The notes under the pieces were generated by a model. It was given only the letters and a program-made list of their open reading frames with translations. It was not told where the DNA came from and searched no databases. From NCBI GenBank assembly GCA_963817615.1, contig CAWFPH010000002.1:769168-833167 (forward strand): DNA of 64,000 bases, read 5' to 3'. The position numbers and the translations under genes were made by a program. Of the stretch, positions 9,420 to 23,142 are shown piece after piece (within the stretch, counting starts at the first letter, position 1; each line of letters opens with the position of its first letter). The DNA is from an uncultured Gammaproteobacteria bacterium. GTDB lineage: Bacteria > Pseudomonadota > Gammaproteobacteria > Steroidobacterales > Rariloculaceae.

Positions 9420-10600
9420 TCAACCAGGCCAAGGTGGCGCGCCGCGCGTATGCGTGACGGTGCGTAGGAAAGCAATGCCGTCCAAATCGGCAACGCCCTG
9501 CGGGGACAGCGGCGAGTAGGGAACATATGGCCGAGCAGCCCCGGTCCTTACCGGGAGCGCAACCAGTGCGCCTTCGGGAACCCGGCGACCTCGCCAAGTC
9601 GGCAGAAACAGATCCGACTGCTGCCCCAGCAAGCGTGCCTCGATGCTCCGTGTTCCGGCGCGCCGATGAAATTGGCTTCGGACGAACCCACTGCCCCGCC
9701 GATCACGGCGAAACGCTCGCCGAAGAGCTGGTCAAGATGCGCGCCCGTCGGCAAGAACTCATACCAAGGCAACTTCGTCCTGGTGCGTCGCAGGTGAGCA
9801 TTGTGCAGATGGACCATCACCTTGCCGCGCGTCCGCTCGCGCTCGGCGATGTAGCCGAGATGCTGGCCGGCCATCGAATCGCGCATTGAAACAAGCGTGC
9901 CAAGCGGCTCTCTCCGCGCAAGCGCCGCGTGCAAAGCGAGGAGATTTCTCGCGACGAAAAGATCGTGCAGCGCGTCGTCGAAGGTCGCTCGATTGCTTTG
10001 AGCGACGAACTCCGGCTGGCGCATGCGTAATTCAAACACCAGGTTCTCCACCGCGAGCCGGAGCGCTTGCGCCCTCGGTGAAACGCCGAACGCCAGCGCC
10101 GGGTCGGGGGCGCGAGTATCCGACGCGTCGGCGCCGCCCATCAGCTGCACCATCAATTCCGCCAGAAGGGCGGTGGCCGGGCGTTCCCAGTCCGCGTCCG
10201 GCCCGACGAGCGGCTCGATGATCGCTCTGTGCCGAGCGGCACCGGCCGCGTCGACTGACTGTAAGTAGGCCAGTACGACTTCGAGCGCTCGCCGCGGACT
10301 CTCCGTCGTCTCCCCCTGCTCCGACGGCAAGGTCCCGTAGAAGCTGAGTTTCACCGCATGCGCGGGATCGGAGTTGTACTGCTTCATCCACTCCACGAGC
10401 TCGCGATTGGCGACATAAAGTCCGGCGCCGTAGCTGAATCCGCTGTCCTGGATTTCCTCGTACGTCGCCGCGCCGCGACCCGAGATGTAATCCTCGACGA
10501 GCCGCGCGCGGGAATCCGTGATCTCGAGCGTGTGACCGGAAATGGAGGCAAAAGGCCGGCACCCTTGGTGCCAGCCCGCCGTGCCGACTTCGTCCTCGGC
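9420..10600 (-). pseudogene. erythromycin-esterase-family gene remnant (5'-truncated, frameshifted near the 3' end)
   Basis: In-frame translation runs LVEDYISGRGAATYEEIQDSGFSYGAGLYVANRELVEWMKQYN...KVMVHLHNAHL, which is Ere-family like. There is no start codon, and the reading frame runs straight into the preceding gene at ~10600. The C-terminal continuation (LGQQSDLFLP...ADLDGIAFLRTVTHT) sits in another frame (ORF 9420-9632). Confidence 0.6.
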
Positions 10601-10601
10601 G

Positions 10602-11069
10602 TTACTGGCGCTCGTACACCTCAGTGTTTGTGAACGCCTTGCCGCTGGCGTCTGTGCCCTTCACCACGCGCGTCAACATCTTGCCATCACCGCTGACGGT
10701 GGCGTGAGTGCTGCCGACTTCTTTGCCATTCAGGGTTGCCGTACTGTCTATCGTGCTCGCGTTCACCCTCTTGGCCACTACGGTTGCGCCGGATGCGGGG
10801 GCGCCTTCCGTGTAACTCAACGCTCCACCCTTCATCGGAAACATGTACTGCACTGACGTCGCCTTGCCAGCGCCATCCGTGCCCGTTCCGCTGACCGCAA
10901 GATCAGCGCCCTTCTCAGTGACCACAGCGCTCAGGGCCTTCACTTCCATGCCCGGCGTAAACTTCGATTTTGCGACGTTCAAGTTCCACGTGCCCGTGTA
11001 CACGTCCGCCGCTGACACCGTGCCAACGAAACCGAGAGCCATCAGTCCCACAACGAGTTTCTTGATCAT
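10602..11069 (-). CDS. small exported protein (signal peptide, beta-rich, lipocalin-like build)
   Basis: Start at ATG 11069 (MIKKLVVGLMALGFVGTVSA), with AAGGGGG 8 nt upstream. A GTWNLNVAKSKFTPG motif follows directly after the signal peptide. Confidence 0.65.
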   Translation of the reverse strand: MIKKLVVGLMALGFVGTVSAADVYTGTWNLNVAKSKFTPGMEVKALSAVVTEKGADLAVSGTGTDGAGKATSVQYMFPMKGGALSYTEGAPASGATVVAKRVNASTIDSTATLNGKEVGSTHATVSGDGKMLTRVVKGTDASGKAFTNTEVYERQ

Positions 11070-11339
11070 GCGTAATTCCCCCTTCGAGGTTAGTTCAATG
11101 CCTTTTGCCCGTCCGACCTTGCTCCGGCTTGCTGAGTTAGACCGTGCGTTATCGAACAGACATGCGGGTACACGAGAAATCGCAGCTCGTGCCACCGCTC
11201 CCGCTTCCCGAAATACATATCCTCGTCGAATCCGCGGAAAGACGACGACCACGTCGCGTTACCTTCTCCGCTGCAAACCGACAACAATCAACGAGGCGAC
11301 GCTCGCCCGCCGCGCCGGAGCGGCTAGCGTCGAAGGACA

Positions 11340-11551
11340 TTCGCATGAACTGGGCACGGCGCCTGAAACGCGTGTTTGGGATAGAGATCGAGCAGTGCGC
11401 GCGCTGCGGCGGGCGCTTGAAAGTGATTGCGAGCATCGAGGCGCCGGAGCTGATCGAACGCATTCTCGCGCACCGGCGTGAGTGGGGCGAGGAGGGGACG
11501 CCGATGGCCTCGCTCGGGCCGCGAGCGCCGCCGCAGCCGTGGCTGTTTTGA
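11340..11551 (+). mobile_element. IS91-family transposase, C-terminal fragment
   Basis: MNWARRLKRVFGIEIEQCARCGGRLKVIASIEAPELIERILAH...RAPP matches the conserved C-terminal zinc-ribbon tail of IS91-family (rolling-circle) transposases. No N-terminal part is upstream on this strand. Confidence 0.7.
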
Positions 11552-11775
11552 TTCGGCAGATCGTCGACGGGCTCGTGTGCTGCGGCGCGGGCGACGGGCG
11601 GCGCTGTGCCCGGAGGCGAACGGCGGCTGCCGGGAGCGTCCGCGCGTTCAAACTCTGCGCCGACGTCGGGCGTGACGCCAGATCAGCGTCGCGACCCGCC
11701 TGCGGCTTTGACACAACGGCGGTTACGCGCACCGCTGCCCGCGGAGCAGGGGGGCTTCAAAATTCCTATCCGCGC

Positions 11776-12324
11776 TGCGTGGTCTACCCGTCTTGCGACC
11801 TCATCGCGCCCGGCGTCGTGCGCCACACGGGCGGCGGCAACCGCTTCATGCTCGGCGAGCCGAACGGCGAGAAGTCCGAGCGCGTCAAAGCGCTGGCCGA
11901 GGCGATGGCGGCCGGCGGTTTGAAAGCGCCGGTCCGTGCGCGCATTCGCGACGATATTTGGTTCAAGCTGCTCGGCAACGCCACATTTAACCCCGTAAGC
12001 GTGCTGACGGGCGCGACCCTCGAGCAGATGGGCCAGCATGCCGGCGTGCGAGCCGTGATCAAGGCGCTCATGCGCGAGGTGGAGCAAGTCGCCGAGAAGC
12101 TCGGCGTGAAGTTCCCCATGGAGCTCGACAAGCGCATCGACGGCGCCACGGCCGTCGGTGCGCACCAAACGTCGATGTTGCAGGATTTCGAGCTCGGGCG
12201 CCCGCTCGAGCTCGACGCGCTCGTGGCCTCGGTCGCCGAGATCGGCCGGCTGGCCGCGTGTCCGACCCCGACGCTCGACGCTCTGCTCGCGCTCGTCCGG
12301 CTGAAGGTCGAGCTTCGTTCCTAG
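11776..12324 (+). pseudogene. 2-dehydropantoate 2-reductase (PanE/ApbA)-like gene, C-terminal domain only
   Basis: VVYPSCDLIAPGVVRHTGGGNRFMLGEPNG...DDIWFKLLGNATFNPVSVLTGATL...QTSMLQDFELGRPLELDAL is the PanE C-terminal domain. The N-terminal Rossmann domain (GxGxxG) is absent. Confidence 0.6.
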
Positions 12325-12596
12325 CCCGAGAACTCCTTGTCGAGGACGAACAGCTTCACCGTGTCGCGCTTGACGCCGTCGTTCTTCATGGCGGCCTGCG
12401 TGGACTCCGACTTGATGAAATCCATATAAGCGCTGACGTCATCCGTGTCGGTGCTCATGACCACATGGTTGTCGGCACCGACCGTGTACTGCATGGGACC
12501 GAGGCCCGCGGCCTTGAACAGCTCGCCATGCGTGCGAAAAGCGCGTTCCCAGCTCGCGCGGTCTTGGACATCCGCCGTCAAAATGACTAAAGCCAT
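12321..12596 (-). CDS. small hypothetical protein (91 aa)
   Basis: The internal ATG at 12596 gives MALVILTADVQDRASWERAFRTHGELFKAAGLGPMQYTVG...KLFVLDKEFSG, which has globular composition. The ORF upstream of this Met is an unrelated IS91 fragment read through in frame. Confidence 0.5.
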   Translation of the reverse strand: MALVILTADVQDRASWERAFRTHGELFKAAGLGPMQYTVGADNHVVMSTDTDDVSAYMDFIKSESTQAAMKNDGVKRDTVKLFVLDKEFSG

Positions 12597-12686
12597 TCTC
12601 GTTTCCTCTTCTCTCTTGTGTAACGCTCTGGAGTCTACACCACGCCGCCTGGGATTGAACCGGCACCTCACCGCTCCCCGTCCTCC

Positions 12687-12990
12687 CGGCGTGACCGCCG
12701 CCCGCAGCGCCGCGTGTGCGGCGAACACTCCATGAAATCTCGTTAGGTGTACCCGCGGCGGCGGCACCAGCGCCGCGAGCCGCGCGATGAAGTCCAACGG
12801 CTCCAGCACGATGTGCGTCGTCCCATCTTGATACGGTGTCTTCAATCGGTAGCGGACTTGGCCCTGCACCGTGAGATCGAGCCGCTCCTCCGCCACCCGG
12901 TGGGCGGCTCACGTAGCGGGTGAGCCTCTCCAGCTTCCCTCGCTGCTCGGTCTCCACACCAATGCCCGCAGCCCAACGCTCCAGCGGAAA
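12687..12990 (-). mobile_element. IS91-family transposase, internal fragment with frameshift
   Basis: AEERLDLTVQGQVRYRLKTPYQDGTTHIVLEPLDFIARLAALVPPPRVHLTRFHGVFAAHAALRAAVTP, together with the upstream RGKLERLTRYVSRPP in a different frame (shift at ~12897-12900), matches the conserved IS91 transposase core. Confidence 0.65.
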
Positions 12991-13264
12991 TCATGAGCGG
13001 GTGGTGGGCAATTCTAAGGGAATTCGAATTGGAGAGGGCTCTGTCCGAATGGGCGGTAACTCGATCGGAACCCGAAATTTTCTTCCCACTCATTGATGAG
13101 TGCATTGGCGATTTATCGCTCTCCGAGAATAGTGGAAGGACGAACTGGATTTCGCGGAACATCGAGGTCGTTCAACTCACTAAAAGCGGGACAACTTCGT
13201 GAGAATTGACCTTGAATGATGCGGAGCCCGATCTGCACAGTCCACAATCGACTCGCCATTGTGG

Positions 13265-13969
13265 TCAGCCGACGGTTTCAACAGCGACCGCTTTGCCCAA
13301 GCGCACACCTCGACCCGCCGCAATCTCTCTCCAATCCATTAACAGATCCGCAAAGACAATCGAAACCATCGCATACAAAATCACGGAATAGCTTCCTGCC
13401 TCAACGCTCAAGTGGTCCAGACCAGGAAGGTGACTGAGAGCTCGGCTCATAACAAAAACCCCTGGTCCAACCGCATAACCGCGGGCCATCCACCGGCGAT
13501 GCGGCCCAATTTTCCCTCTGCGTGCGGCGATCACCGCGGTAACTGTGCAGAGAATCCATGCGCCCGCCTGCGCTGTGGCGCTGCACGGAAGAAACGCGGG
13601 ATAGTGCCAGGCGAGAACAGGTGCCAATACGCCAGCCACAATCACCGCACCGAGATAGGTCTTGCCCAGCAACCTGTGCCGAGCAATATTCCTCTGCCTC
13701 AAGCGCGAAGAAAATTGCATGGGGCCTACGACCAGCGCGACTAATCCCGCGGCGATGTGGGGGAAGAGGAGCCAACGCTGCGAATACAGCAGGCTATGAA
13801 GCGGGTGCGCCGGACTCATCATCGGAATGCTGGTGAACAGGAAGGCCACTAACGCCATCGACCCGAAGACCATCCAGGACACGGTTTTCTTCAAGCCGCC
13901 AGCTGTCGGGCGCGTGACTTCGCCGTGCGTTTGAAGGTTTTGACTGCCAAGTGTGCTGACAGTATTCAT
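13265..13969 (-). CDS. DUF2306-like integral membrane protein
   Basis: Start at ATG 13969 with GGAGGG 5 nt upstream. HIAAGLVALVVGPMQFSSRLRQRNIARHRLLGKTYLGAVIVAG fits the DUF2306 pattern as I remember it. The gene lies in the low-GC segment. Confidence 0.7.
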   Translation of the reverse strand: MNTVSTLGSQNLQTHGEVTRPTAGGLKKTVSWMVFGSMALVAFLFTSIPMMSPAHPLHSLLYSQRWLLFPHIAAGLVALVVGPMQFSSRLRQRNIARHRLLGKTYLGAVIVAGVLAPVLAWHYPAFLPCSATAQAGAWILCTVTAVIAARRGKIGPHRRWMARGYAVGPGVFVMSRALSHLPGLDHLSVEAGSYSVILYAMVSIVFADLLMDWREIAAGRGVRLGKAVAVETVG

Positions 13970-14009
13970 AGGATCCCTCCAAAGAACGCCATCCATGGCA
14001 TCGCCAAGG

Positions 14010-14438
14010 CTATGCGCGTCTGATCGGATCGTGAGGAACGGCGTGGGGATCGATCGAAGTATTGTGGCCGTTGCAAATCTGCCATTCGCCACCCGCTTTC
14101 ACGGTAACGAGAGTCAGGCGGTCGACCACTCCACTCATGCGTCGTCCATCCGGTGTCACATAGTCACCCATCCTTAGAGTTAACGTCGCAATGGCCACAT
14201 CATTTGAAATCATTCGAATCTCAGGATCGCTTTGCTCCATAGCGGTTTCGCGGAACATTCCTGCATGCAATACCTCATGAGCTTTGACGATTTCATCGCG
14301 CCCCCTCCACCACATGCCCACAACATTCACCCAATCCGCATCCTCGGCCAGTATTTTGCCCAGATCCTCCAACTGGTGACGATTCCAAATGCTCCCCAGA
14401 GATCGAACGAGCGCTACAATTTTCGACTTGTCATCCAC
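14010..14438 (-). CDS. NTF2-fold / SnoaL-like (DUF4440-type) protein
   Basis: 142 aa. IVALVRSLGSIWNRHQLEDLGKILAEDADWVNVVGMWWRGRDEIVKAHEVLH...LVTVKAGGEWQICNGHNT is typical of SnoaL/SgcJ-type NTF2-like proteins. Confidence 0.7.
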   Translation of the reverse strand: MDDKSKIVALVRSLGSIWNRHQLEDLGKILAEDADWVNVVGMWWRGRDEIVKAHEVLHAGMFRETAMEQSDPEIRMISNDVAIATLTLRMGDYVTPDGRRMSGVVDRLTLVTVKAGGEWQICNGHNTSIDPHAVPHDPIRRA

Positions 14439-14541
14439 GACAAATCTCCCGATGTATGAACCGCACTTACAAGGCTGATCTGCCGAGTTAACTGGCTGCG
14501 GTACCTCGACATGCGCAGCTACTCGCCTTCATCGCCATAGT

Positions 14542-15495
14542 CTATTGGAGGTTCCCTGCGGAGAATTGTAAAAATGCGACATTTCCGAAAACTGGTGCTT
14601 CAGTTGACCGCGATGAACAAGGCTCGATCGAATGAAAGTCCACATCCGGCAGCGAAACGAGCAGCTTTTGCGGAGCGGCGCCTGCCAGCAGGCGCGTGTC
14701 TCGGATCAGATGCGCCTGGTCAAAGTAGCCGGCGTCTGAAGCAACCCTCGTCCACGAAAAACCTGGATTGGTTTGCTTTCTCAGCACGGCAAATTCAAGA
14801 CGCGCCACCCTTGAAAACAGCTTCGGCGCAACTCCCACACGTTCGCGAAACTGTCTTTCAAACTGTCGCAGGCTCAGATTGCATTGGCGAGCCAACAACG
14901 CCAAGTCTACCATTCCATGTCTTCGGCGTATCCATCTGGCCGCCAACTCAACCGGCGAAATTTCGATCGTCCGACGCAGTTGTCGTAGTAGAAATTCATC
15001 TGCCGCATCCGCAAGTTCCCGGACCGCGACGGCATTCTGCAGCCGGTTCAACAGATAAGAGACTTCTCGACCCAGTACGCTTTCCCCAGGCAGAGCCTTG
15101 TCGGCTAGTGGATGAATCGGAATGCGAAAGAGCGCATGTAGGCCTGCCGGATGGAAATGAATCGTGAACGTTCGCACCAACCTTGGATAAATCAGATCGC
15201 CCTTGATCTTCGTACTGGGACCGGCGAGCAGGACTTTGGGTGCAGTCCAGATCCTCGCTGGCGTACGAATCTGGTAAGAGTCAAGGAGGTAAAACTCCAA
15301 AGTCTGCTGTGTGCGCGCGTAGATTGGACGCAGCACCGCACAATCCTCCGACTTACCCTGCCGCAAGCCGTAATGAGAGACATAGCGCGAAATCGGCTCG
15401 CACGGAGGGAACACCTTTAACTGCAACCTGAAACTGGTTTCAGTCATAGACAGACCATTCACGGCGCAATCAATCTGCCATTTTGCGGCAATCAC
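14542..15495 (-). CDS. AraC-family transcriptional regulator
   Basis: C-terminal double HTH: LARQCNLSLRQFERQFRERVGVAPKLFSRVARLEFAV...ASDAGYFDQAHLIRDTRLLAGAAP. The start is uncertain (15495 or ATG 15447). Confidence 0.85.
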   Translation of the reverse strand: MIAAKWQIDCAVNGLSMTETSFRLQLKVFPPCEPISRYVSHYGLRQGKSEDCAVLRPIYARTQQTLEFYLLDSYQIRTPARIWTAPKVLLAGPSTKIKGDLIYPRLVRTFTIHFHPAGLHALFRIPIHPLADKALPGESVLGREVSYLLNRLQNAVAVRELADAADEFLLRQLRRTIEISPVELAARWIRRRHGMVDLALLARQCNLSLRQFERQFRERVGVAPKLFSRVARLEFAVLRKQTNPGFSWTRVASDAGYFDQAHLIRDTRLLAGAAPQKLLVSLPDVDFHSIEPCSSRSTEAPVFGNVAFLQFSAGNLQ

Positions 15496-15960
15496 CTAAC
15501 GGTCCCGCAAGTATATTTCACACTCTCCGTAAGACAATCATGAAGCACACGATGTGAAAGAACGCCTGGTAGATCGAGAGCGAACGATTTTAGCGTACGA
15601 CGAGGCGGCGGAAGTTGCTCAGGGTATAGCATGGGAGAACATTCCACGTGACGCTAAGACGTTCATCGTCGAAACATGGCTTGGGCCTGGCCCCACCGAG
15701 TTTCGCGTTGCGAGTCTCCATGAATTTACGCTCGCTCTTGGCGACCAAAGTGATTTAACAACTGCCTGCGTGCGACTTCCATAAGTCATTCGCCGCGGAT
15801 AGGAATTTTGACCGCACTTCCGTGCCAGAGGCAGAGGGCGCATAAAAACGGGCGGTGCACGGCCCGAAACGCAGCGTCTTATACGGCGCCACCGCAAACT
15901 TGGCGTGCGCAAACTCAGCCCGGCTGCACTTGGTACGCTCAGTGAGTAGCCCATCAACAG

Positions 15961-18459
15961 ATGACACACGCGAAAGACGACATTCTGCAAAAGATCGCCC
16001 GCGAAGAGGCGCGGCTGCGCGAGCTCGATCGAACTCGTGAGGAAGCACGAACGCGAATCGCCTCGCTGAGATCGGAGCTCGATACCGCGCGAGAAGGCCC
16101 AACGGCGCCTCTACCCTTCCGCTCGGCGAACAACAGCGCACCACAGACGCCGACCGACAAAGTGCGACTATTCATTTCACTGTTCCGTGGCCGTCCCGAC
16201 GTATTCCCAACACGTTTCGTCAGCAAGAAAACTGGCAAGCCGGGCTATGCACCCGCTTGCTCCAACAAGTGGGAGCCCGGGCTTTGCGCGCTCCGGAGCG
16301 GCGGGAAATGCGGCGAATGTGCGAACCAGTCTTTCCTCCCGGTCGGCGATCAAGTGGTCCTCGATCACCTTCAGGGCAGGCACGTCATGGGCGTCTATCC
16401 CCTTCTTCCCGACGAGACCTGTTGGTTCCTGGCAGCCGACTTCGACAAGAGCTCGTGGCAAGAGGATGTCATTGCCTTCGCCGAGACTTGTAGCATCGCC
16501 GGCGTATGAGTCTCGATTGAGCGCTCTCGTTCAGGAAACGGCGCGCACGCATGGTTCTTCTTCGCTGCACCCGTCCCTGCCAACGTCGCGAGACGCATGG
16601 GTTGCTACCTCATCACCGAGACGATGAGCCGGCGCCACCAGCTCAGCATGGAATCCTATGACCGTCTGTTCCCGAATCAGGACACGATGCCGCGCGGCGG
16701 ATTCGGCAACCTCATCGCGTTGCCGCTCCACGAACCGAGGCAGGAGGGGAACAGCGTCTTCATCGATGAACGGTTTGAACCTTACGCGGACCAGTGGGCG
16801 TTCCTCGCAGCCGCTTCGCGGATCGACCCCGCCGTTGCGGAGGCAATCGCCCGGGACGCGACACGAACGGGCCAAGTCGTCGGCGTGCGGTTCGCCGAGA
16901 CCACGGACGATGAAGGGGCGGCCGCCCCGTGGATGCGGGCGCCGTCGGGCCACGTGCCCGCGAAGCGGACCGTCGGTCCCGTCCCGCGCGTTGTAAAAGC
17001 CGTGCTCGCCCAGCGGCTCTTCATCGAGAAATCCGGACTCCCTTCGCCGTTGTTGACTGAGCTCAGCCGTCTGGCGGCCTTCCAGAACCCGGAGTTCTAC
17101 AAGAAGCAGAGCATGCGCCTGTCCACGGCGTTGACGCCGCGCGTGATTGCGTGCGACGGCGAGCTTCCCCTTTTCATGGCACTCCCCCGAGGCTGCGTGC
17201 CGGATGCGCAACGGTTGCTTCGCGAGAACGGCGCGGAGCTCGCGATCGAGGATCAGCGGTACAAGGGCGCGCCGCTCGCGCACAAGTTTAGCGGCGAGCT
17301 CACGCCCGTCCAGAAAGAAGCTGCCCGTGCACTCCTGGCGCACGACACCGGAGTGTTTGTCGGGCCTCCTGGCATTGGCAAGACGGTTCTGGGCACGTAT
17401 CTCATCGCGCAGCGCGGTTGCCCGACGCTCATCCTCGTCCACCGAAAGCCGCTGTTAGAGCAATGGATCGCTCAGCTGGCGATGTTTCTAGGCCTCGACG
17501 AAAAGGCGATCGGCCAGATCGGCGGGGGCAAACGCAAGGCGAATGGCCGCCTCGATGTGGCGATGATCCAGAGCCTCGTGCGCAAGGACAAGGTCGAAGA
17601 CGTCGTTGCGCGATATGGGCACGTCATCGTCGACGAGTGCCACCACCTTCCGGCGGTCTCATTCGAACGTGTGCTCTCCGAGGTGAAGGCGCGGTTCGTC
17701 GCAGGGCTAACCGCAACGCCGCACCGGCGCGACGGACATCACCCGATTACTGAAATGCAGCTCGGGCCGGTTCGCTACAACGTCAGCGTCAAGAGTCACG
17801 TTGCGCGCAGACCGTTCGAGCATAAGCTCATCGTCCGCGAGACTGCGTTCCGGATGATCGGCGACAAGTCCGGTGCCGGCATCCAGGAAATCTACGGCGC
17901 ATTGGCGAGGGATGAGACACGCAACAGACGCATTCTCGACGATGTCATCGCCGTGCTCGAGCAGGGGCGCTCGCCCATTCTTCTGACCGAACGAAAAGAG
18001 CACGTGGAGTACTTCGCCGATCATCTGCGCCGACTCGTGCGACACGTCGTCGTTCTACGCGGTGGGATGACAGCGATGGCGCGTCGGAGCTCGGTCAGTC
18101 AGCTCGCGGCCATCCCAGATAACGAAGAGCGTCTCGTGCTCGCAACCGGCCGCTACATCGGCGAGGGGTTCGACGACGCGAGACTCGACACCCTGTTCCT
18201 GGCCATGCCGATTTCCTGGAAAGGCACGCTGATTCAGTACAGCGGTCGCCTTCACCGACATCACCCCGGCAAGAAGGAAGTACGGATCTACGACTACGTC
18301 GACCGCGAAGTCGCGATGCTTGTGCGGATGTTCGAGAAGCGACTGAGCACGTATCGTGCGATCGGCTACGCCAGGGGCGAGGCGCCACTCGGCTTCGCCG
18401 AGCCGGCCGAGGAGCGCGTCATTGAGTACGACGAGGAGTTGCTCCGACACGCGACCTAA
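15961..18459 (+). pseudogene. archaeo-eukaryotic primase (PrimPol) - SF2 helicase fusion gene, interrupted by one in-frame TGA at 16507-16509
   Basis: ORFs 15961-16509 and 16597-18459 are in the same frame. Reading across the single TGA gives CSIAGV*VSIERSRSGNGAHAWFFF. The N-terminus has a coiled coil, a Cys cluster (CSNKWEPGLC...CGEC), AEP motif I (FLAADFD, 16438-16446), motif II (SGNGAH, 16531-16548) and FPNQD...GGFGNLIALPL. The helicase part has Walker A GPPGIGKT (17362-17385), DECHH (17632-17646), TATP and QYSGRLHR. Confidence 0.85.
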
Positions 18460-18462
18460 CGT

Positions 18463-19098
18463 CTAGCGCGGTGTCGGCGGGGCGTATTCTGGCGGACGCG
18501 TCGCGACAACTGCGCCGCCATCGTCCACGATGCGCTCGGGTAGCAGGCATTGCCCTATTCGCGCAGGACTGATTTCGAAGTGGCCATGGCAGGTTCTCAT
18601 CAGCCCTCTTGCAGAGCTGAACTGCCCAGGCGGCGCCGCCACGTAGTACTTCTTGTCGACGAAGCGGCGTCGAGTCTTCTCGATAGCGGGAACGAGATCG
18701 GAATCCGCGCTGACGATGACGGCACGGTCGTAGAGATCGTCGTAACCATCCTCGACGACTGCGAGCGCAAGGCGTACGTCGGTCTCCTTCTCCTCGTGGG
18801 CCTTCCAGCTATGCCCGCAACGCCGACAGCTTCGATACTTGTCCTTGAAGTGCGCCATTACTGGGGTCGTCCCGGTGGTCTCCAATGCGGCAACGTACTG
18901 GCGATGACGGGCATACGGCCCCGGTAGCCATGTCGCGTAAGCACTGAAGTATCTGACGCAAGCCAGAGTTTCGCCCGGTCGCAGCATCGTTCGGGCAAGA
19001 GCAGACAGGTCAACCCATTTCAGATGAGGACGCCCGAGCTCGTCGATGGCGTGATACAGATTGAATCCGTCGAAGTAGCAGCAAACTCGCGTGACCAT
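18463..19098 (-). CDS. NYN-domain (LabA/PIN-like) putative ribonuclease with inserted Cys motif
   Basis: Start at ATG 19098 (GGGAG 9 nt upstream). The conserved acidic positions of NYN domains are present: CCYFDGFNLYH, EKETDVRLAL and VIVSADSDLVPAI. There is also a CRRCGH element. Its stop lies 3 nt from the PrimPol-helicase stop. Confidence 0.8.
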   Translation of the reverse strand: MVTRVCCYFDGFNLYHAIDELGRPHLKWVDLSALARTMLRPGETLACVRYFSAYATWLPGPYARHRQYVAALETTGTTPVMAHFKDKYRSCRRCGHSWKAHEEKETDVRLALAVVEDGYDDLYDRAVIVSADSDLVPAIEKTRRRFVDKKYYVAAPPGQFSSARGLMRTCHGHFEISPARIGQCLLPERIVDDGGAVVATRPPEYAPPTPR

Positions 19099-19279
19099 CG
19101 ACTCATGCTCCCGCAAACAAAAAAGGCCAGGCACCTTGCGGCGACCTAGCCTTATCCGCGGGGACGTACCCCGTGGGTTTACCGAGGCGCAATTTTAAAG
19201 ACATCCCTCACCACTTCGCAACCTCACATCGAGACCAGCGTGACGGGCATCTCGCCGGCGGCCGTTCGCCATTCGCTTA

Positions 19280-20377
19280 TCAGCGGATCCCCGCCTGATC
19301 GAGGCGCTTGACGAGATCCTCGGCCCGCAGGTGCGTGTAGCGGCGCAGCATCTGCATCGACTTGTGCCCCGAGATCGACGCGGCTTCCTGATCGCTCAAA
19401 CCCGCTTCGACGAGTCGCGATACGGCCTCGTGGCGCAAATCGTGAAACCGAAACCCTTTGATCTTCGCGTTGCGCACGGCGGTAAACCATGCGCGCTTGA
19501 AATCGTGACCGCGGCGTTGCCCATCGCGCCCCGGCTCGCCGAAAAACACCAACTCCGTATCCTCCGGCCGAACGGGGTTCTTGACTGCCGCGCGCATCAC
19601 CTTCACGGCCTGCTTGGACAAAGGCACGGTTCGCGCGGACCCGTTCTTGGTTTCGTTGAGCCGAATGACTCGGCGCTTCAAATCGACCTGATCGAGCGTC
19701 AGTGACTGGATTTCGCCCTGACGCATGCCGGTATAGAGCGCGAGCTTCACCATCCATCCGAGCATCGGATTCGAGTGCTCGCTACAGGCTTTGATCAGCA
19801 GCTTTTCTTCGGCCGGTCTCAGCCGCCGCGCCCGGCCGGGCGCTGGCGACGGCTTGCGCACCAGCGAGACCGGGTTGTAGACGACACTGAGCCGCCACTC
19901 CCGAATCGCCGTCGTATATAGATGAGAGAGCAGAGCGAGATCGAGCCGGACGCTCGACGACGACTGCCCTTCCTTGGTCCTGTCGTCGCGATATTTGGCG
20001 ATCACATCCGGCGTCAACGCCGTGAGGCTGTACTTGCCGAGACGGTCCTTCAGCGTCTTCGCGCGGCGGAGCTCGCGCGAAGCGGTCGTCACGCGCTTGG
20101 TCGGCGTGATCTCCGACAGGTAGCGATCGAGCGCCACCTTCAACGTCAGTTGATGCGAATCCGCTCGGTTGATGAAAACACCGCGCACCATTTCATCTTC
20201 GACGTTGCGCGCCCAATCCTCGGCGTCCCGCTTTGTGCGAAACGTCTTACTCGAGATCGGCCAACCCGTTTTGCGGACGACCGCTTTCCATTTGCCAGCG
20301 GCGGTTTTCAGCAGAGTAGCCAAGGTAAGACCCCCAATGCTCACGGGCGCGAGGCCACTCTTTCGAGTGTACCTCAC
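19280..20377 (-). CDS. int: tyrosine-type site-specific integrase
   Basis: The C-terminal catalytic pattern is present: ALYTGMRQGEI...FHDLRHEAVSRLVE...ISGHKSMQMLRRYTH (R...HxxR...Y). The true start is possibly TTG 20323 (MATLLKTAAGKWKAVVRK) with GGGGG upstream. The gene lies 66-120 nt from the tRNA-Phe 3' end. Confidence 0.9.
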   Translation of the reverse strand: MRYTRKSGLAPVSIGGLTLATLLKTAAGKWKAVVRKTGWPISSKTFRTKRDAEDWARNVEDEMVRGVFINRADSHQLTLKVALDRYLSEITPTKRVTTASRELRRAKTLKDRLGKYSLTALTPDVIAKYRDDRTKEGQSSSSVRLDLALLSHLYTTAIREWRLSVVYNPVSLVRKPSPAPGRARRLRPAEEKLLIKACSEHSNPMLGWMVKLALYTGMRQGEIQSLTLDQVDLKRRVIRLNETKNGSARTVPLSKQAVKVMRAAVKNPVRPEDTELVFFGEPGRDGQRRGHDFKRAWFTAVRNAKIKGFRFHDLRHEAVSRLVEAGLSDQEAASISGHKSMQMLRRYTHLRAEDLVKRLDQAGIR

Positions 20378-20442
20378 TGTACCTCTGCTGTACCTTCCGT
20401 GGACTTACGAGCCGAGCACGGTAACATAAGTCATTGATTAGA

Positions 20443-20518
<76 letters not shown>

Positions 20519-20684
20519 GTGCGGCAGGCGCGCGGAGCGCCGAACGGGCGAGTATTAGAACGAGCCGGTCGCGGGCGCGTCAAGGCGTTCTCTCAGGATC
20601 CTCCGGATAGGCCGGCGCGGCGCCGACGGCATTTTGCCGGTGTCGACTGCGGCGCGCGGGCCCGCAATTTGCATTCCCGCGGGC

Positions 20685-22004
20685 ATGAGCCACGCTCTTG
20701 CCGCCCCGCACGCCGAGGAGTTGCCGGCGCGCTACCGGCGCATCCGAGAGGACACCTTGCGTCTCGCCGCTCCGCTCGCGATCGAGGACCAGGTCGTGCA
20801 GGTGAGCGCAGAGACGAGTCCGACGAAATGGCACCTCGCGCATACGACGTGGTTCTTCGAGCGCTTCTGCCTCGCGACATATGCCAGAGGCTATGAGCCG
20901 GTCGATCCGCGTTACGACACGCTGTTCAACTCCTATTACTACACGGTCGGCGAAATGCACGCGCGCGCCGAGCGCGGGCTGCTGAGCCGCCCCACCGTGG
21001 CCGACATCCGCGAGTATCGCGCTCGCGTCGACGCCGCCATGACCCGATTGCTCGCCGAGCGCAGCCACGAGCGTGAGATCGCGGCGATCGTCGAGCTCGG
21101 CTTGAACCACGAGCAGCAGCATCAGGAGCTGTTGCTCACCGACGTGAAGCAGGTGCTATTCGCGAACCCGCTCGGACCGCGCTACGCGGACTTGCCGCTG
21201 CCGATGCCATGCCACGCCACCGCGGTCGACTTCGTAACTCAACCGAGCGGCGTGCTCGAGATCGGCGCAGATGGGCGCAGCTTCTGCTTCGACAATGAGA
21301 CTCCGCGTCATCGCGTGCTCGTGCGGGAGCATGCGCTCGGCTCACGGCTCGTCGCGAACGCCGAGTACCGCGAGTTCATCGACGACGGCGGTTATGGCGA
21401 GCCGCGTCTATGGCTCGCGGACGGCTGGGCGAAGATTCGCACCGAGCGGTGGTCGCGACCGCTCTGCTGGTCCGAGGACTGCGAGCGTGAATTCACGCTC
21501 GGGGGCTGGCGCGAGATCGACGCGCAGGCGCCCGTCTGCCACGTGAGCTACTACGAGGCCGACGCGTTCGCGCGATGGGCCGGCCGGCGGTTGCCGACCG
21601 AGGCCGAATGGGAGATCGCCGCGGCCGCCACCGCCGTCGCGGGCAACACCCTCGAGACGGGCTTCATGCAGCCGGTCGGCATCGAGCCGCGAGCGCCGCC
21701 GGTCGGGTCGGCCGCGGCGACCCAATCCGCGATGCCCGGGGGGAGGCCGCCGGTTTCGAAGATCTCGCAGCTCTGGGGCGACGTCTGGGAATGGTGCGCC
21801 TCGAGCTACGGACCCTACCCCGGCTTCGAGGCACACGCGGGATCGCTCGGCGAGTACAACGGCAAGTTCATGTGCAATCAGGTCGTGGTCCGCGGCGGCT
21901 CGTGCGCGAGCTGGGCGGAGCATCTGCGGCCCACTTATCGAAGTTTCTTTTATCCGCAAGACCGCTGGCAATTTTTGGGATTCAGACTCGCGAATGATCT
22001 CTGA
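20685..22004 (+). CDS. egtB: ergothioneine biosynthesis sulfoxide synthase EgtB (DinB-like + FGE-sulfatase domains)
   Basis: SPTKWHLAHTTWFFERF, ELGLNHEQQHQELLLTD and C-terminal GDVWEWCASSYGPYPGF...RGGSCAS match EgtB. Start taken at ATG 20685. Confidence 0.9.
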   Translation: MSHALAAPHAEELPARYRRIREDTLRLAAPLAIEDQVVQVSAETSPTKWHLAHTTWFFERFCLATYARGYEPVDPRYDTLFNSYYYTVGEMHARAERGLLSRPTVADIREYRARVDAAMTRLLAERSHEREIAAIVELGLNHEQQHQELLLTDVKQVLFANPLGPRYADLPLPMPCHATAVDFVTQPSGVLEIGADGRSFCFDNETPRHRVLVREHALGSRLVANAEYREFIDDGGYGEPRLWLADGWAKIRTERWSRPLCWSEDCEREFTLGGWREIDAQAPVCHVSYYEADAFARWAGRRLPTEAEWEIAAAATAVAGNTLETGFMQPVGIEPRAPPVGSAAATQSAMPGGRPPVSKISQLWGDVWEWCASSYGPYPGFEAHAGSLGEYNGKFMCNQVVVRGGSCASWAEHLRPTYRSFFYPQDRWQFLGFRLANDL

Positions 22005-22161
22005 ATCCCCGCCTTGAGGACGCGCCGGGGCGAAGCGACGGCGAAGCGAATGCTTGCAGCCGCGCGGGTCGGCCGCTGCTCGGCGTAGCGTCGGGCCGCC
22101 CGAGCGCACGGGTCGCCACATGCACCGCGCCGCTGGCGCGCAACTTGCACTCCGGCCGGGC

Positions 22162-23142
<981 letters not shown>

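Follow-up and report, generated by a model that had tools for sequence, protein, structure and literature searches.

Whether a lone in-frame TGA marks a dead gene, a recoding site or an error of assembly is the question raised by a locus in a 64,000-nucleotide stretch of DNA from an uncultured gammaproteobacterium (here called the window). The ORF list places two ORFs of the forward strand, 15961-16509 (182 amino acids [aa]) and 16597-18459 (620 aa), in a common frame. Retranslation agreed with an earlier note that had described the TGA as the only interruption between them: across the 833 codons of the region, the sole internal stop is the TGA at 16507-16509, in the context CSIAGV-stop-VSIERSRSGNGAHAWFFF. 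No ATG, GTG or TTG occurs between this stop and position 16597, where the first start codon 3′ of it is found. As the TGA breaks the frame that joins both domains of the encoded protein, the locus is very probably a recent nonsense pseudogene of an IEE-family gene (IEE, IS-excision enhancer), carried on a small tRNA-Phe island. Its importance is limited, the locus being an ordinary young pseudogene rather than a recoding signal or a sequencing error.

A single gene interrupted by one stop codon

A single Pfam AEP-TOTE match (PF22548; aa 66-291; E value, 1.1e-90) spans the TGA, and matches to ResIII, DEAD and Helicase_C lie C-terminal of it. Because one match crosses the stop, both ORFs are parts of one interrupted gene, with the TGA falling between AEP motifs I and II as the earlier note had proposed. 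The positions it gave for DFD (16438-16446) and SGNGAH (16531-16548) were also correct. For annotation, the two ORFs are best merged and flagged as one pseudogene. The features of the locus are collected in Table 1.

Table 1. Coordinates of the interrupted gene, its motifs and lesions, and the neighboring island features in the window
Feature	Position	Strand	Evidence or remark
IEE-family gene, interrupted (AEP/PrimPol plus SF2 helicase)	15961..18459	+	Read-through translation of 832 aa; Pfam, BLASTP
AEP motif A, D160-F-D162 (IEE D142/D144)	16438..16446	+	Alignment to IEE; catalytic role from PMC9943667
Premature TGA, codon 183	16507..16509	+	Translation; identical in L001 and L002
AEP motif B, S189-RSGNGA-H196 (IEE S171...H178)	16525..16548	+	IEE mapping; homologue alignment
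Downstream ORF, 620 aa, with motif C and intact SF2 helicase	16597..18459	+	ORF list; possible but unsupported restart product
AEP motif C, Asp234 (IEE D216)	16660..16662	+	SYDRLFPNQD identical to IEE 214-223
3-nt in-frame deletion, between 16728 and 16729	16726..16731	+	Removes the Gln of GFGNLIALPL(Q)
Helicase Walker A, GPPGIGKT (K474 = IEE K451)	17362..17385	+	Alignment to IEE; PMC9943667
NYN-domain gene, variable cargo	18463..19134	-	Pfam NYN, E value 6e-12; PADLOC HEC-09, E value 2.6e-53
Tyrosine integrase	19280..20377	-	Pfam Phage_integrase, E value 2e-34
tRNA-Phe (GAA), integration site	20443..20518	-	ARAGORN; Rfam tRNA, 72.8 bits

Relationship to IEE and to other AEP systems

More than 8,000 homologues were scored in the homologue search, and the alignment counts given here are drawn from the 120 that were listed. 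Nearly all of these 120 were full length (∼835 aa), the best sharing 82% identity with the window protein. They were encoded in MAGs of Gammaproteobacteria, Acidobacteriota, Myxococcota, Planctomycetota and other phyla, a spread that points to horizontal mobility of the gene.

BLASTP alignment of the window protein with IEE of E. coli O157 (ECs_1305, Sakai genome) gave 46% identity across 756 aa (632 bits). IEE matches PF22548 with an E value of 1.7e-98 and has the same Pfam architecture as the window protein (AEP-TOTE, ResIII/DEAD and Helicase_C), and its residues D142/D144, H178, D216 and K451 align with D160/D162, H196, D234 and K474 of the window protein. Given this alignment and the catalytic residues and architecture held in common, IEE is, as judged by sequence, the closest characterized relative of the window gene, which is therefore labeled here as an IEE homologue and not as a generic "PrimPol conflict gene." No dedicated enhancer of IS excision other than IEE is known.

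The 786-aa IEE protein of E. coli O157:H7 joins a "Z1568-like" AEP domain to an SF2 helicase and promotes the transposase-dependent excision of elements from the IS3, IS1 and IS30 families (PMC9943667). In vitro it displays Mn-dependent polymerase activity and microhomology-mediated end joining, and end joining or end synapsis requires both domains (PMC9943667). Approximately 1.5% of E. coli IEE sequences are shorter than 750 aa owing to small deletions in either of the two domains (PMC9943667).

The window protein is colinear with IEE (ECs_1305/Z1568; Kusumoto 2011; Calvo 2023, PMC9943667) over its full length, and motifs A (hDhD), B (sxH) and C (hD) and the Walker A Lys are all encoded. Both genes are carried by integrase-bearing integrative elements, IEE by SpLE1 in the Sakai genome and the window gene by the tRNA-Phe island. 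Unlike in IEE, the frame of the window copy is interrupted, by the TGA at codon 183, and not all family-invariant residues are retained, an invariant Gln being missing. The window protein also has an N-terminal extension of ∼18 to 45 aa that is coiled-coil-like, and its host, unlike E. coli, is an uncultured high-GC bacterium. The island in the window is small, and the biological role of the gene, an IEE-like part in IS excision, would be as predicted by homology to IEE.

By its AEP domain the protein falls within PF22548, the Pfam family that takes its name from TOTE systems, so that the effector domain of such a system is present. TOTE systems are TPR, OB, TBP, Effector conflict systems, as summarized in PMC12458937 with reference to Aravind et al. 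(2022). No TPR-CSD/OB or TATA-binding-protein gene was found within ∼6 kb on either side of the window gene, and no conserved TPR-OB/TBP partner was found across 80 homologous loci; the neighbors of the window gene encode AraC, SnoaL/DUF4440, DUF2306, NYN and integrase proteins. With IEE as the closest characterized relative and with both TPR-OB and TBP partners absent, the description of the gene as a "costly conflict gene," put forward earlier, is not established.

The closest solved structure to the AEP half by sequence was that of the Marinitoga CRISPR-associated Prim-Pol (CAPP; PDB 7nqd/7nqf; E value, 9e-9; aa 127-282), and those nearest to the helicase half were XPB/XPBII. For CAPP of Marinitoga piezophila, the PADLOC model "PrimPol, CAS-associated" matches the window protein (E value, 1.9e-83). 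However, the NCBIfam PrimPol_Msp score of 87.5 bits falls below the cut-off of 200, no cas gene was present among the neighboring genes scanned, and the helicase partner in the window protein is, compared with CAPP, an XPB/UvsW-like SF2 enzyme. The locus also resembles nonsense pseudogenes of mobile-element and accessory genes, in which a single premature stop likewise lies in a well-preserved accessory island gene. Nothing essential distinguishes it from ordinary examples; its one unusual point is that two or more substitutions separate the stop from the conserved Pro codon.

Reality and decoding of the TGA codon

The exact 182-aa product was identified in two Logan assemblies of other runs. 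The contig from ERR11523651 (L001) is 100% identical to window positions 11724-17118, and that from ERR11718635 (L002) corresponds to window positions 12745-16728 except for four mismatches at its positions 7 to 36, at the contig end. Both read GTA TGA GTC. The evidence for the TGA is the consensus of three assemblies, these two and the source, and as L001 and L002 could share their site or project with the source genome, they prove reproducibility and not spread in independent populations. No sense-codon alleles at the stop site were detected in two pattern scans of JGI metagenome contigs.

Among the 120 listed homologues, the residue in the stop column was Pro in 114, Ser in four, Thr in one and Arg in one, with Cys and Trp in none, and E. 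coli IEE has Pro there. At the DNA level, CCN occupied this column in 71 of 81 loci, and TGA was found only in the window and its two identical copies.

A sequencing or assembly error concealing a true sense codon could be envisaged, given that the source is apparently a metagenome-derived contig of 2.25 Mb and that consensus errors occur in such assemblies. This explanation, raised in the earlier note, is very unlikely. The identical TGA, with identical flanks, recurs in two Logan assemblies built separately from different runs, and at none of its three bases does the codon agree with the CCG of the nearest relatives, although no indel is involved, which is an atypical error pattern. Programmed recoding, with the UGA read as selenocysteine or giving useful read-through to a full-length enzyme and perhaps throttling an error-prone polymerase, would suit a single stop beyond which the frame continues, and UGA is the leakiest of the bacterial stop codons. 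Against it, the homologues have Pro and never Cys or Sec at this position, and TGA occurs in none of the 80 other loci. The 81 nt from 16500 showed no SECIS-like fold, their minimum free energy (−23.9 kcal/mol) being no better than that of shuffled versions (mean, −25.1 kcal/mol; z = 0.39), and an Rfam scan of 11000-21000 returned the tRNA alone (72.8 bits), with no match downstream of the stop. Near-cognate read-through of UGA normally inserts Trp, which would here fall on a Pro conserved at 95%, and the Gln deletion is a second lesion in the same domain. Recoding is thus highly improbable. An alternative genetic code in which TGA is a sense codon in the source organism has only the in-frame TGA to recommend it and is effectively refuted: TGA terminates 15 of the window's 26 long ORFs, that of the integrase among them, and is the commonest stop codon there, and the G+C content is ∼65%. 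Known TGA reassignments are to Trp or Gly, whereas the homologous residue is Pro. There is therefore no support for selenocysteine, for a TGA-sense code or for a conserved read-through site, and the recoding site offered earlier as an alternative is countered by the Pro column, the unshared TGA, the missing downstream fold and the frequent use of TGA as a terminator.

Mutational path and age of the lesion

In L083 and L084, the nearest intact relatives, GTA CCG GTC stands in place of the GTA TGA GTC of the window. TGA and CCG differ at all three bases, so the mutational path is a deduced one; two changes or more separate TGA from any Pro codon. The sense codons one step from TGA that had been suggested for this position (TGG, CGA, GGA, TGC and TCA) are not those of the orthologues, in which Pro predominates (114 of the 120 listed), with CCG as the codon of the nearest intact relatives. 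Homologues with Ser in this column often carry another Ser two residues on (P0058, P0069 and L004; ...SVS...), and with the window reading ...stop-VS..., a path from Pro through Ser (TCA) to TGA appears plausible.

The lesion is young. The window protein deviates at two of the 267 columns with a conservation of 97% or more (family median, 2). In three-taxon comparisons, unique changes across the whole protein numbered 53 for the window and 50 for the comparator, and within the AEP domain they numbered 6 to 14 versus 9 to 18. Nei-Gojobori omega was 0.100 for the window against L083 and 0.107 against L084, compared with 0.103 for the intact L083-L084 pair, and the window value was similar before and after the stop. 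With omega at the intact baseline of ∼0.10 and no acceleration in rate, the earlier view of a recent lesion is borne out, and a rough upper bound on the neutral time is ∼0.01 to 0.015 substitutions per site.

The statement that the gene has no other decay, in turn, has to be withdrawn, as an invariant Gln codon has been deleted at 16728/16729 (CTC---CAC in the window compared with CTCCAGCAC). This Gln is invariant in all 120 listed homologues and present in E. coli IEE, and its loss is one of the two deviations counted above. In addition, P785 is replaced by Ala in the window protein, a position at which 117 of the 120 listed homologues have Pro. At least one invariant column is also broken in 42 of the 120, and a single invariant deviation is therefore statistically not unusual.

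Other inactivated copies

Clustering of the 620-aa ORF at 90% identity gave three fragments. The closest relatives of the window copy, L085 (JGI 3300036806) and L086 (SRR11835809), do not differ from each other and share 92% nucleotide identity with the window, only from window position 17194 rightwards; to the left of this breakpoint lie Fic and AbiEi genes that are unrelated. The reading frame of the remnant in L085/L086 is shifted over Walker A. For the final 323 codons, comparison of the window with L085 gave an omega of 0.089 at a dS of 0.27, and so low a value despite the decay argues that the inactivations in the window and in L085/L086 are, on the sequences compared, independent and recent. 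An origin of the TGA before the split from L085 was considered and rejected, with 6 to 14 unique changes in the AEP domain compared with ∼60 expected by a rough estimate.

Other damaged copies were also found. An in-frame TAG of their own was carried by 2 of the 80 species-level loci, L003 (at the equivalent of residue 613) and L044 (at the equivalent of residue 500), and P0123 looks frameshifted near residue 740. Inactivation of these copies is occasional and independent.

Predicted products and their possible functions

The upstream 182-aa product contains motif A only. Motif B, whose columns at +6 to +13 from the stop are invariant in 119 to 120 of the 120 listed homologues, lies inside the 29 sense codons (16510-16596) that separate the stop from ATG 16597 and is found in neither ORF product. 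The downstream ORF keeps motif C and the complete helicase. Neither product holds a complete active site, in agreement with the earlier note. In the sequence of events proposed here, a substitution-type nonsense mutation would have converted codon 183 (ancestrally Pro, and possibly Ser just prior) to TGA. Translation from ATG 15961 would then end after 182 residues and give a fragment with the metal-binding motif A only, the nucleotide-binding motif B would be encoded in no ORF, and any protein initiated anew at ATG 16597 would combine motif C with the helicase but lack a polymerase active site. Since microhomology-mediated end joining by E. coli IEE needs both domains, IEE-type activity, that is, transposase-dependent IS excision and repair, has probably been lost. 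No second copy of the IEE homologue was found in the window.

ATG 16597 is the start used by gene callers, both in the NCBI/ENA record of the source contig and in the Logan assemblies. No Shine-Dalgarno-like pairing was identified upstream of it (−3.0 kcal/mol, approximately the median of random positions), and as the native start at 15961 likewise has none, this test does not discriminate. Of the restart suggested earlier, the prediction of a helicase-only protein without a polymerase site stands, and the initiation itself finds no Shine-Dalgarno support.

A functional split, in which a helicase-only protein from ATG 16597, perhaps together with the 182-aa fragment, is retained for a new or residual role, would be consistent with the fully open 620-codon ORF, with its intact Walker A and other helicase motifs, and with the omega of 0.089 for the C-terminal 323 codons against L085. 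A very recent lesion explains the low omega equally well, and as the AEP part has an equally low omega without acceleration, there is no differential constraint between the domains. Moreover, ATG 16597 lacks a Shine-Dalgarno-like sequence, the nearest relatives have destroyed the helicase Walker A too, and end synapsis in IEE needs both domains, making such a split unlikely. Either a leaky stop, with trace polymerase made alongside a helicase from ATG 16597, or a positively selected loss of IEE would be a decidedly improbable account of the locus. Under the former, the UGA may be tolerated or selected, with an error-prone end-joining polymerase being throttled, and the locus would be a regulated split and not a dead gene. 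The latter, the weaker variant, may be suggested by the repeated independent knock-outs in the window, L085/L086, L003 and L044. If loss of IEE were selected, which is not demonstrated here, this would bear on the host-IS balance of excision versus proliferation. A recent nonsense pseudogene is the preferred reading.

Genomic context at tRNA-Phe

The pseudogene lies at the far end of its island, in the order tRNA-Phe, tyrosine integrase, NYN/HEC-09-like gene and IEE homologue. The tRNA-Phe gene abuts the integrase gene, and the IEE homologue is convergent with the NYN gene. HEC-09 is a candidate defense gene for which testing revealed no protection (bioRxiv 10.1101/2024.01.29.577857). A NYN gene also follows the truncated copy in L085. 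A role for NYN as functional partner of the IEE homologue was rejected, as NYN lies beside the homologue in 0 of the 80 species-level loci.

No distal att repeat of tRNA-Phe was found in the window, either as an exact match (≥12 nt) or with up to four mismatches in 22 nt. Repeats of 47 to 63 nt from the 3′ part of tRNA-Phe flank the IEE homologue in four other loci (L024, L028, L042 and L051). The order IEE homologue, cargo, integrase and tRNA-Phe recurs in L003 and L084, the cargo of the latter being AbiEi/AbiEii, and the integrases of these two loci occupy the same position and are 83 to 87% identical to that of the window. A tRNA-Phe gene likewise flanks the related islands in L003, L084, L024, L028 and L051. 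In soil and freshwater MAGs of several phyla, IEE homologues are commonly carried by small tRNA-Phe islands.

Lesions in the IEE homologue and its relatives

The premature TGA at codon 183 of the IEE homologue shares the AEP domain with a second lesion, an in-frame loss of 3 nt at window positions 16726-16731 that removes the final Gln of the motif GFGNLIALPLQ. This residue was invariant in 120/120 homologues and is likewise present in E. coli IEE. Truncated remnants were found in two fragments, L085 (JGI 3300036806) and L086 (SRR11835809), drawn from the 90%-identity cluster of the downstream 620-aa ORF. Their truncated allele is identical in the two datasets, lacks the 5′ end up to the point equivalent to window position 17194, is frameshifted over the Walker A motif of the helicase, and is preceded by unrelated Fic and AbiEi genes. 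Two species-level homologues, L003 and L044, each interrupted by a single in-frame TAG, are independent nonsense pseudogenes within the family. L003 also resides in a tRNA-Phe island, with an integrase 83% identical to that of the window.

Predicted ribosome-binding pairing was assessed upstream of the native start, ATG 15961 (positions 15936-15960; −2.6 kcal/mol), and of the candidate restart, ATG 16597 (positions 16572-16596; −3.0 kcal/mol), against a median of −2.7 kcal/mol at random positions. Shine-Dalgarno-like pairing was absent at both sites; initiation in this host, or of this gene, may be independent of such pairing.

Features of the island, its surroundings, and related loci
Feature	Locus	Position	Strand	Remark
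Truncated IEE-homologue remnant	L085; L086	5730-6994; 1127-2391		Closest relatives of window allele, 92% nt identity
Single in-frame TAG	L003	9804-9806		Equivalent to residue 613
Single in-frame TAG	L044	7327-7329		Equivalent to residue 500
Downstream ORF pair	L024	10499-10864; 10807-11718
Repeat-bounded segments	L024; L028; L042; L051	6806-12043; 195-6105; 3312-15404; 5094-12931
NYN-domain gene	Window	18463-19134	−	Matches PADLOC HEC-09 (candidate defence family), E 2.6e-53
Erythromycin-esterase fragment	Window	9548-10396	−	Profile positions 57-268 of 358
Y2 (IS91-type) transposase, C-terminal fragment	Window	12321-12896	−
EgtB-like gene (DinB_2 + FGE-sulfatase) and EgtD-like histidine methyltransferase	Window	20559-23142	+

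Genetic context of IEE homologues

Segments containing IEE homologues were bounded in four loci (L024, L028, L042, and L051) by direct repeats of 47 to 63 nt corresponding to the 3′ part of tRNA-Phe. L042 has four copies of the repeat, which suggests tandem islands. Homologues of the window's integrase, the only family looked for, were not found inside these segments; the one tyrosine-recombinase match in L042 was distant (29% identity) and lay in the adjacent segment.

Downstream of the IEE homologue, 12 of the 80 species-level loci, L024 among them, carry two further ORFs. The first, of 121 aa, gives a weak CcbP-like match, and in L024 its start overlaps with the stop of the IEE homologue; the second, of ∼300 to 380 aa, has no Pfam match. 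The three genes may form a conserved module, which is absent from the window. The truncated copy in L085 is, like the window copy, followed by an NYN gene, but no such gene adjoins the homologue at any of the 80 species-level loci. The NYN gene of the window, placed between integrase and IEE homologue, looks like exchangeable cargo.

A search of the window turned up no distal att repeat of tRNA-Phe that would define the left edge of the island. To the left of the island lie apparent gene remnants, the esterase and Y2 transposase fragments, and G+C dips to 0.54-0.60 across 12-16 kb. The core-genome side is marked by the EgtB-like and EgtD-like genes, probably an ergothioneine biosynthesis pair; they sit directly to the right of tRNA-Phe.
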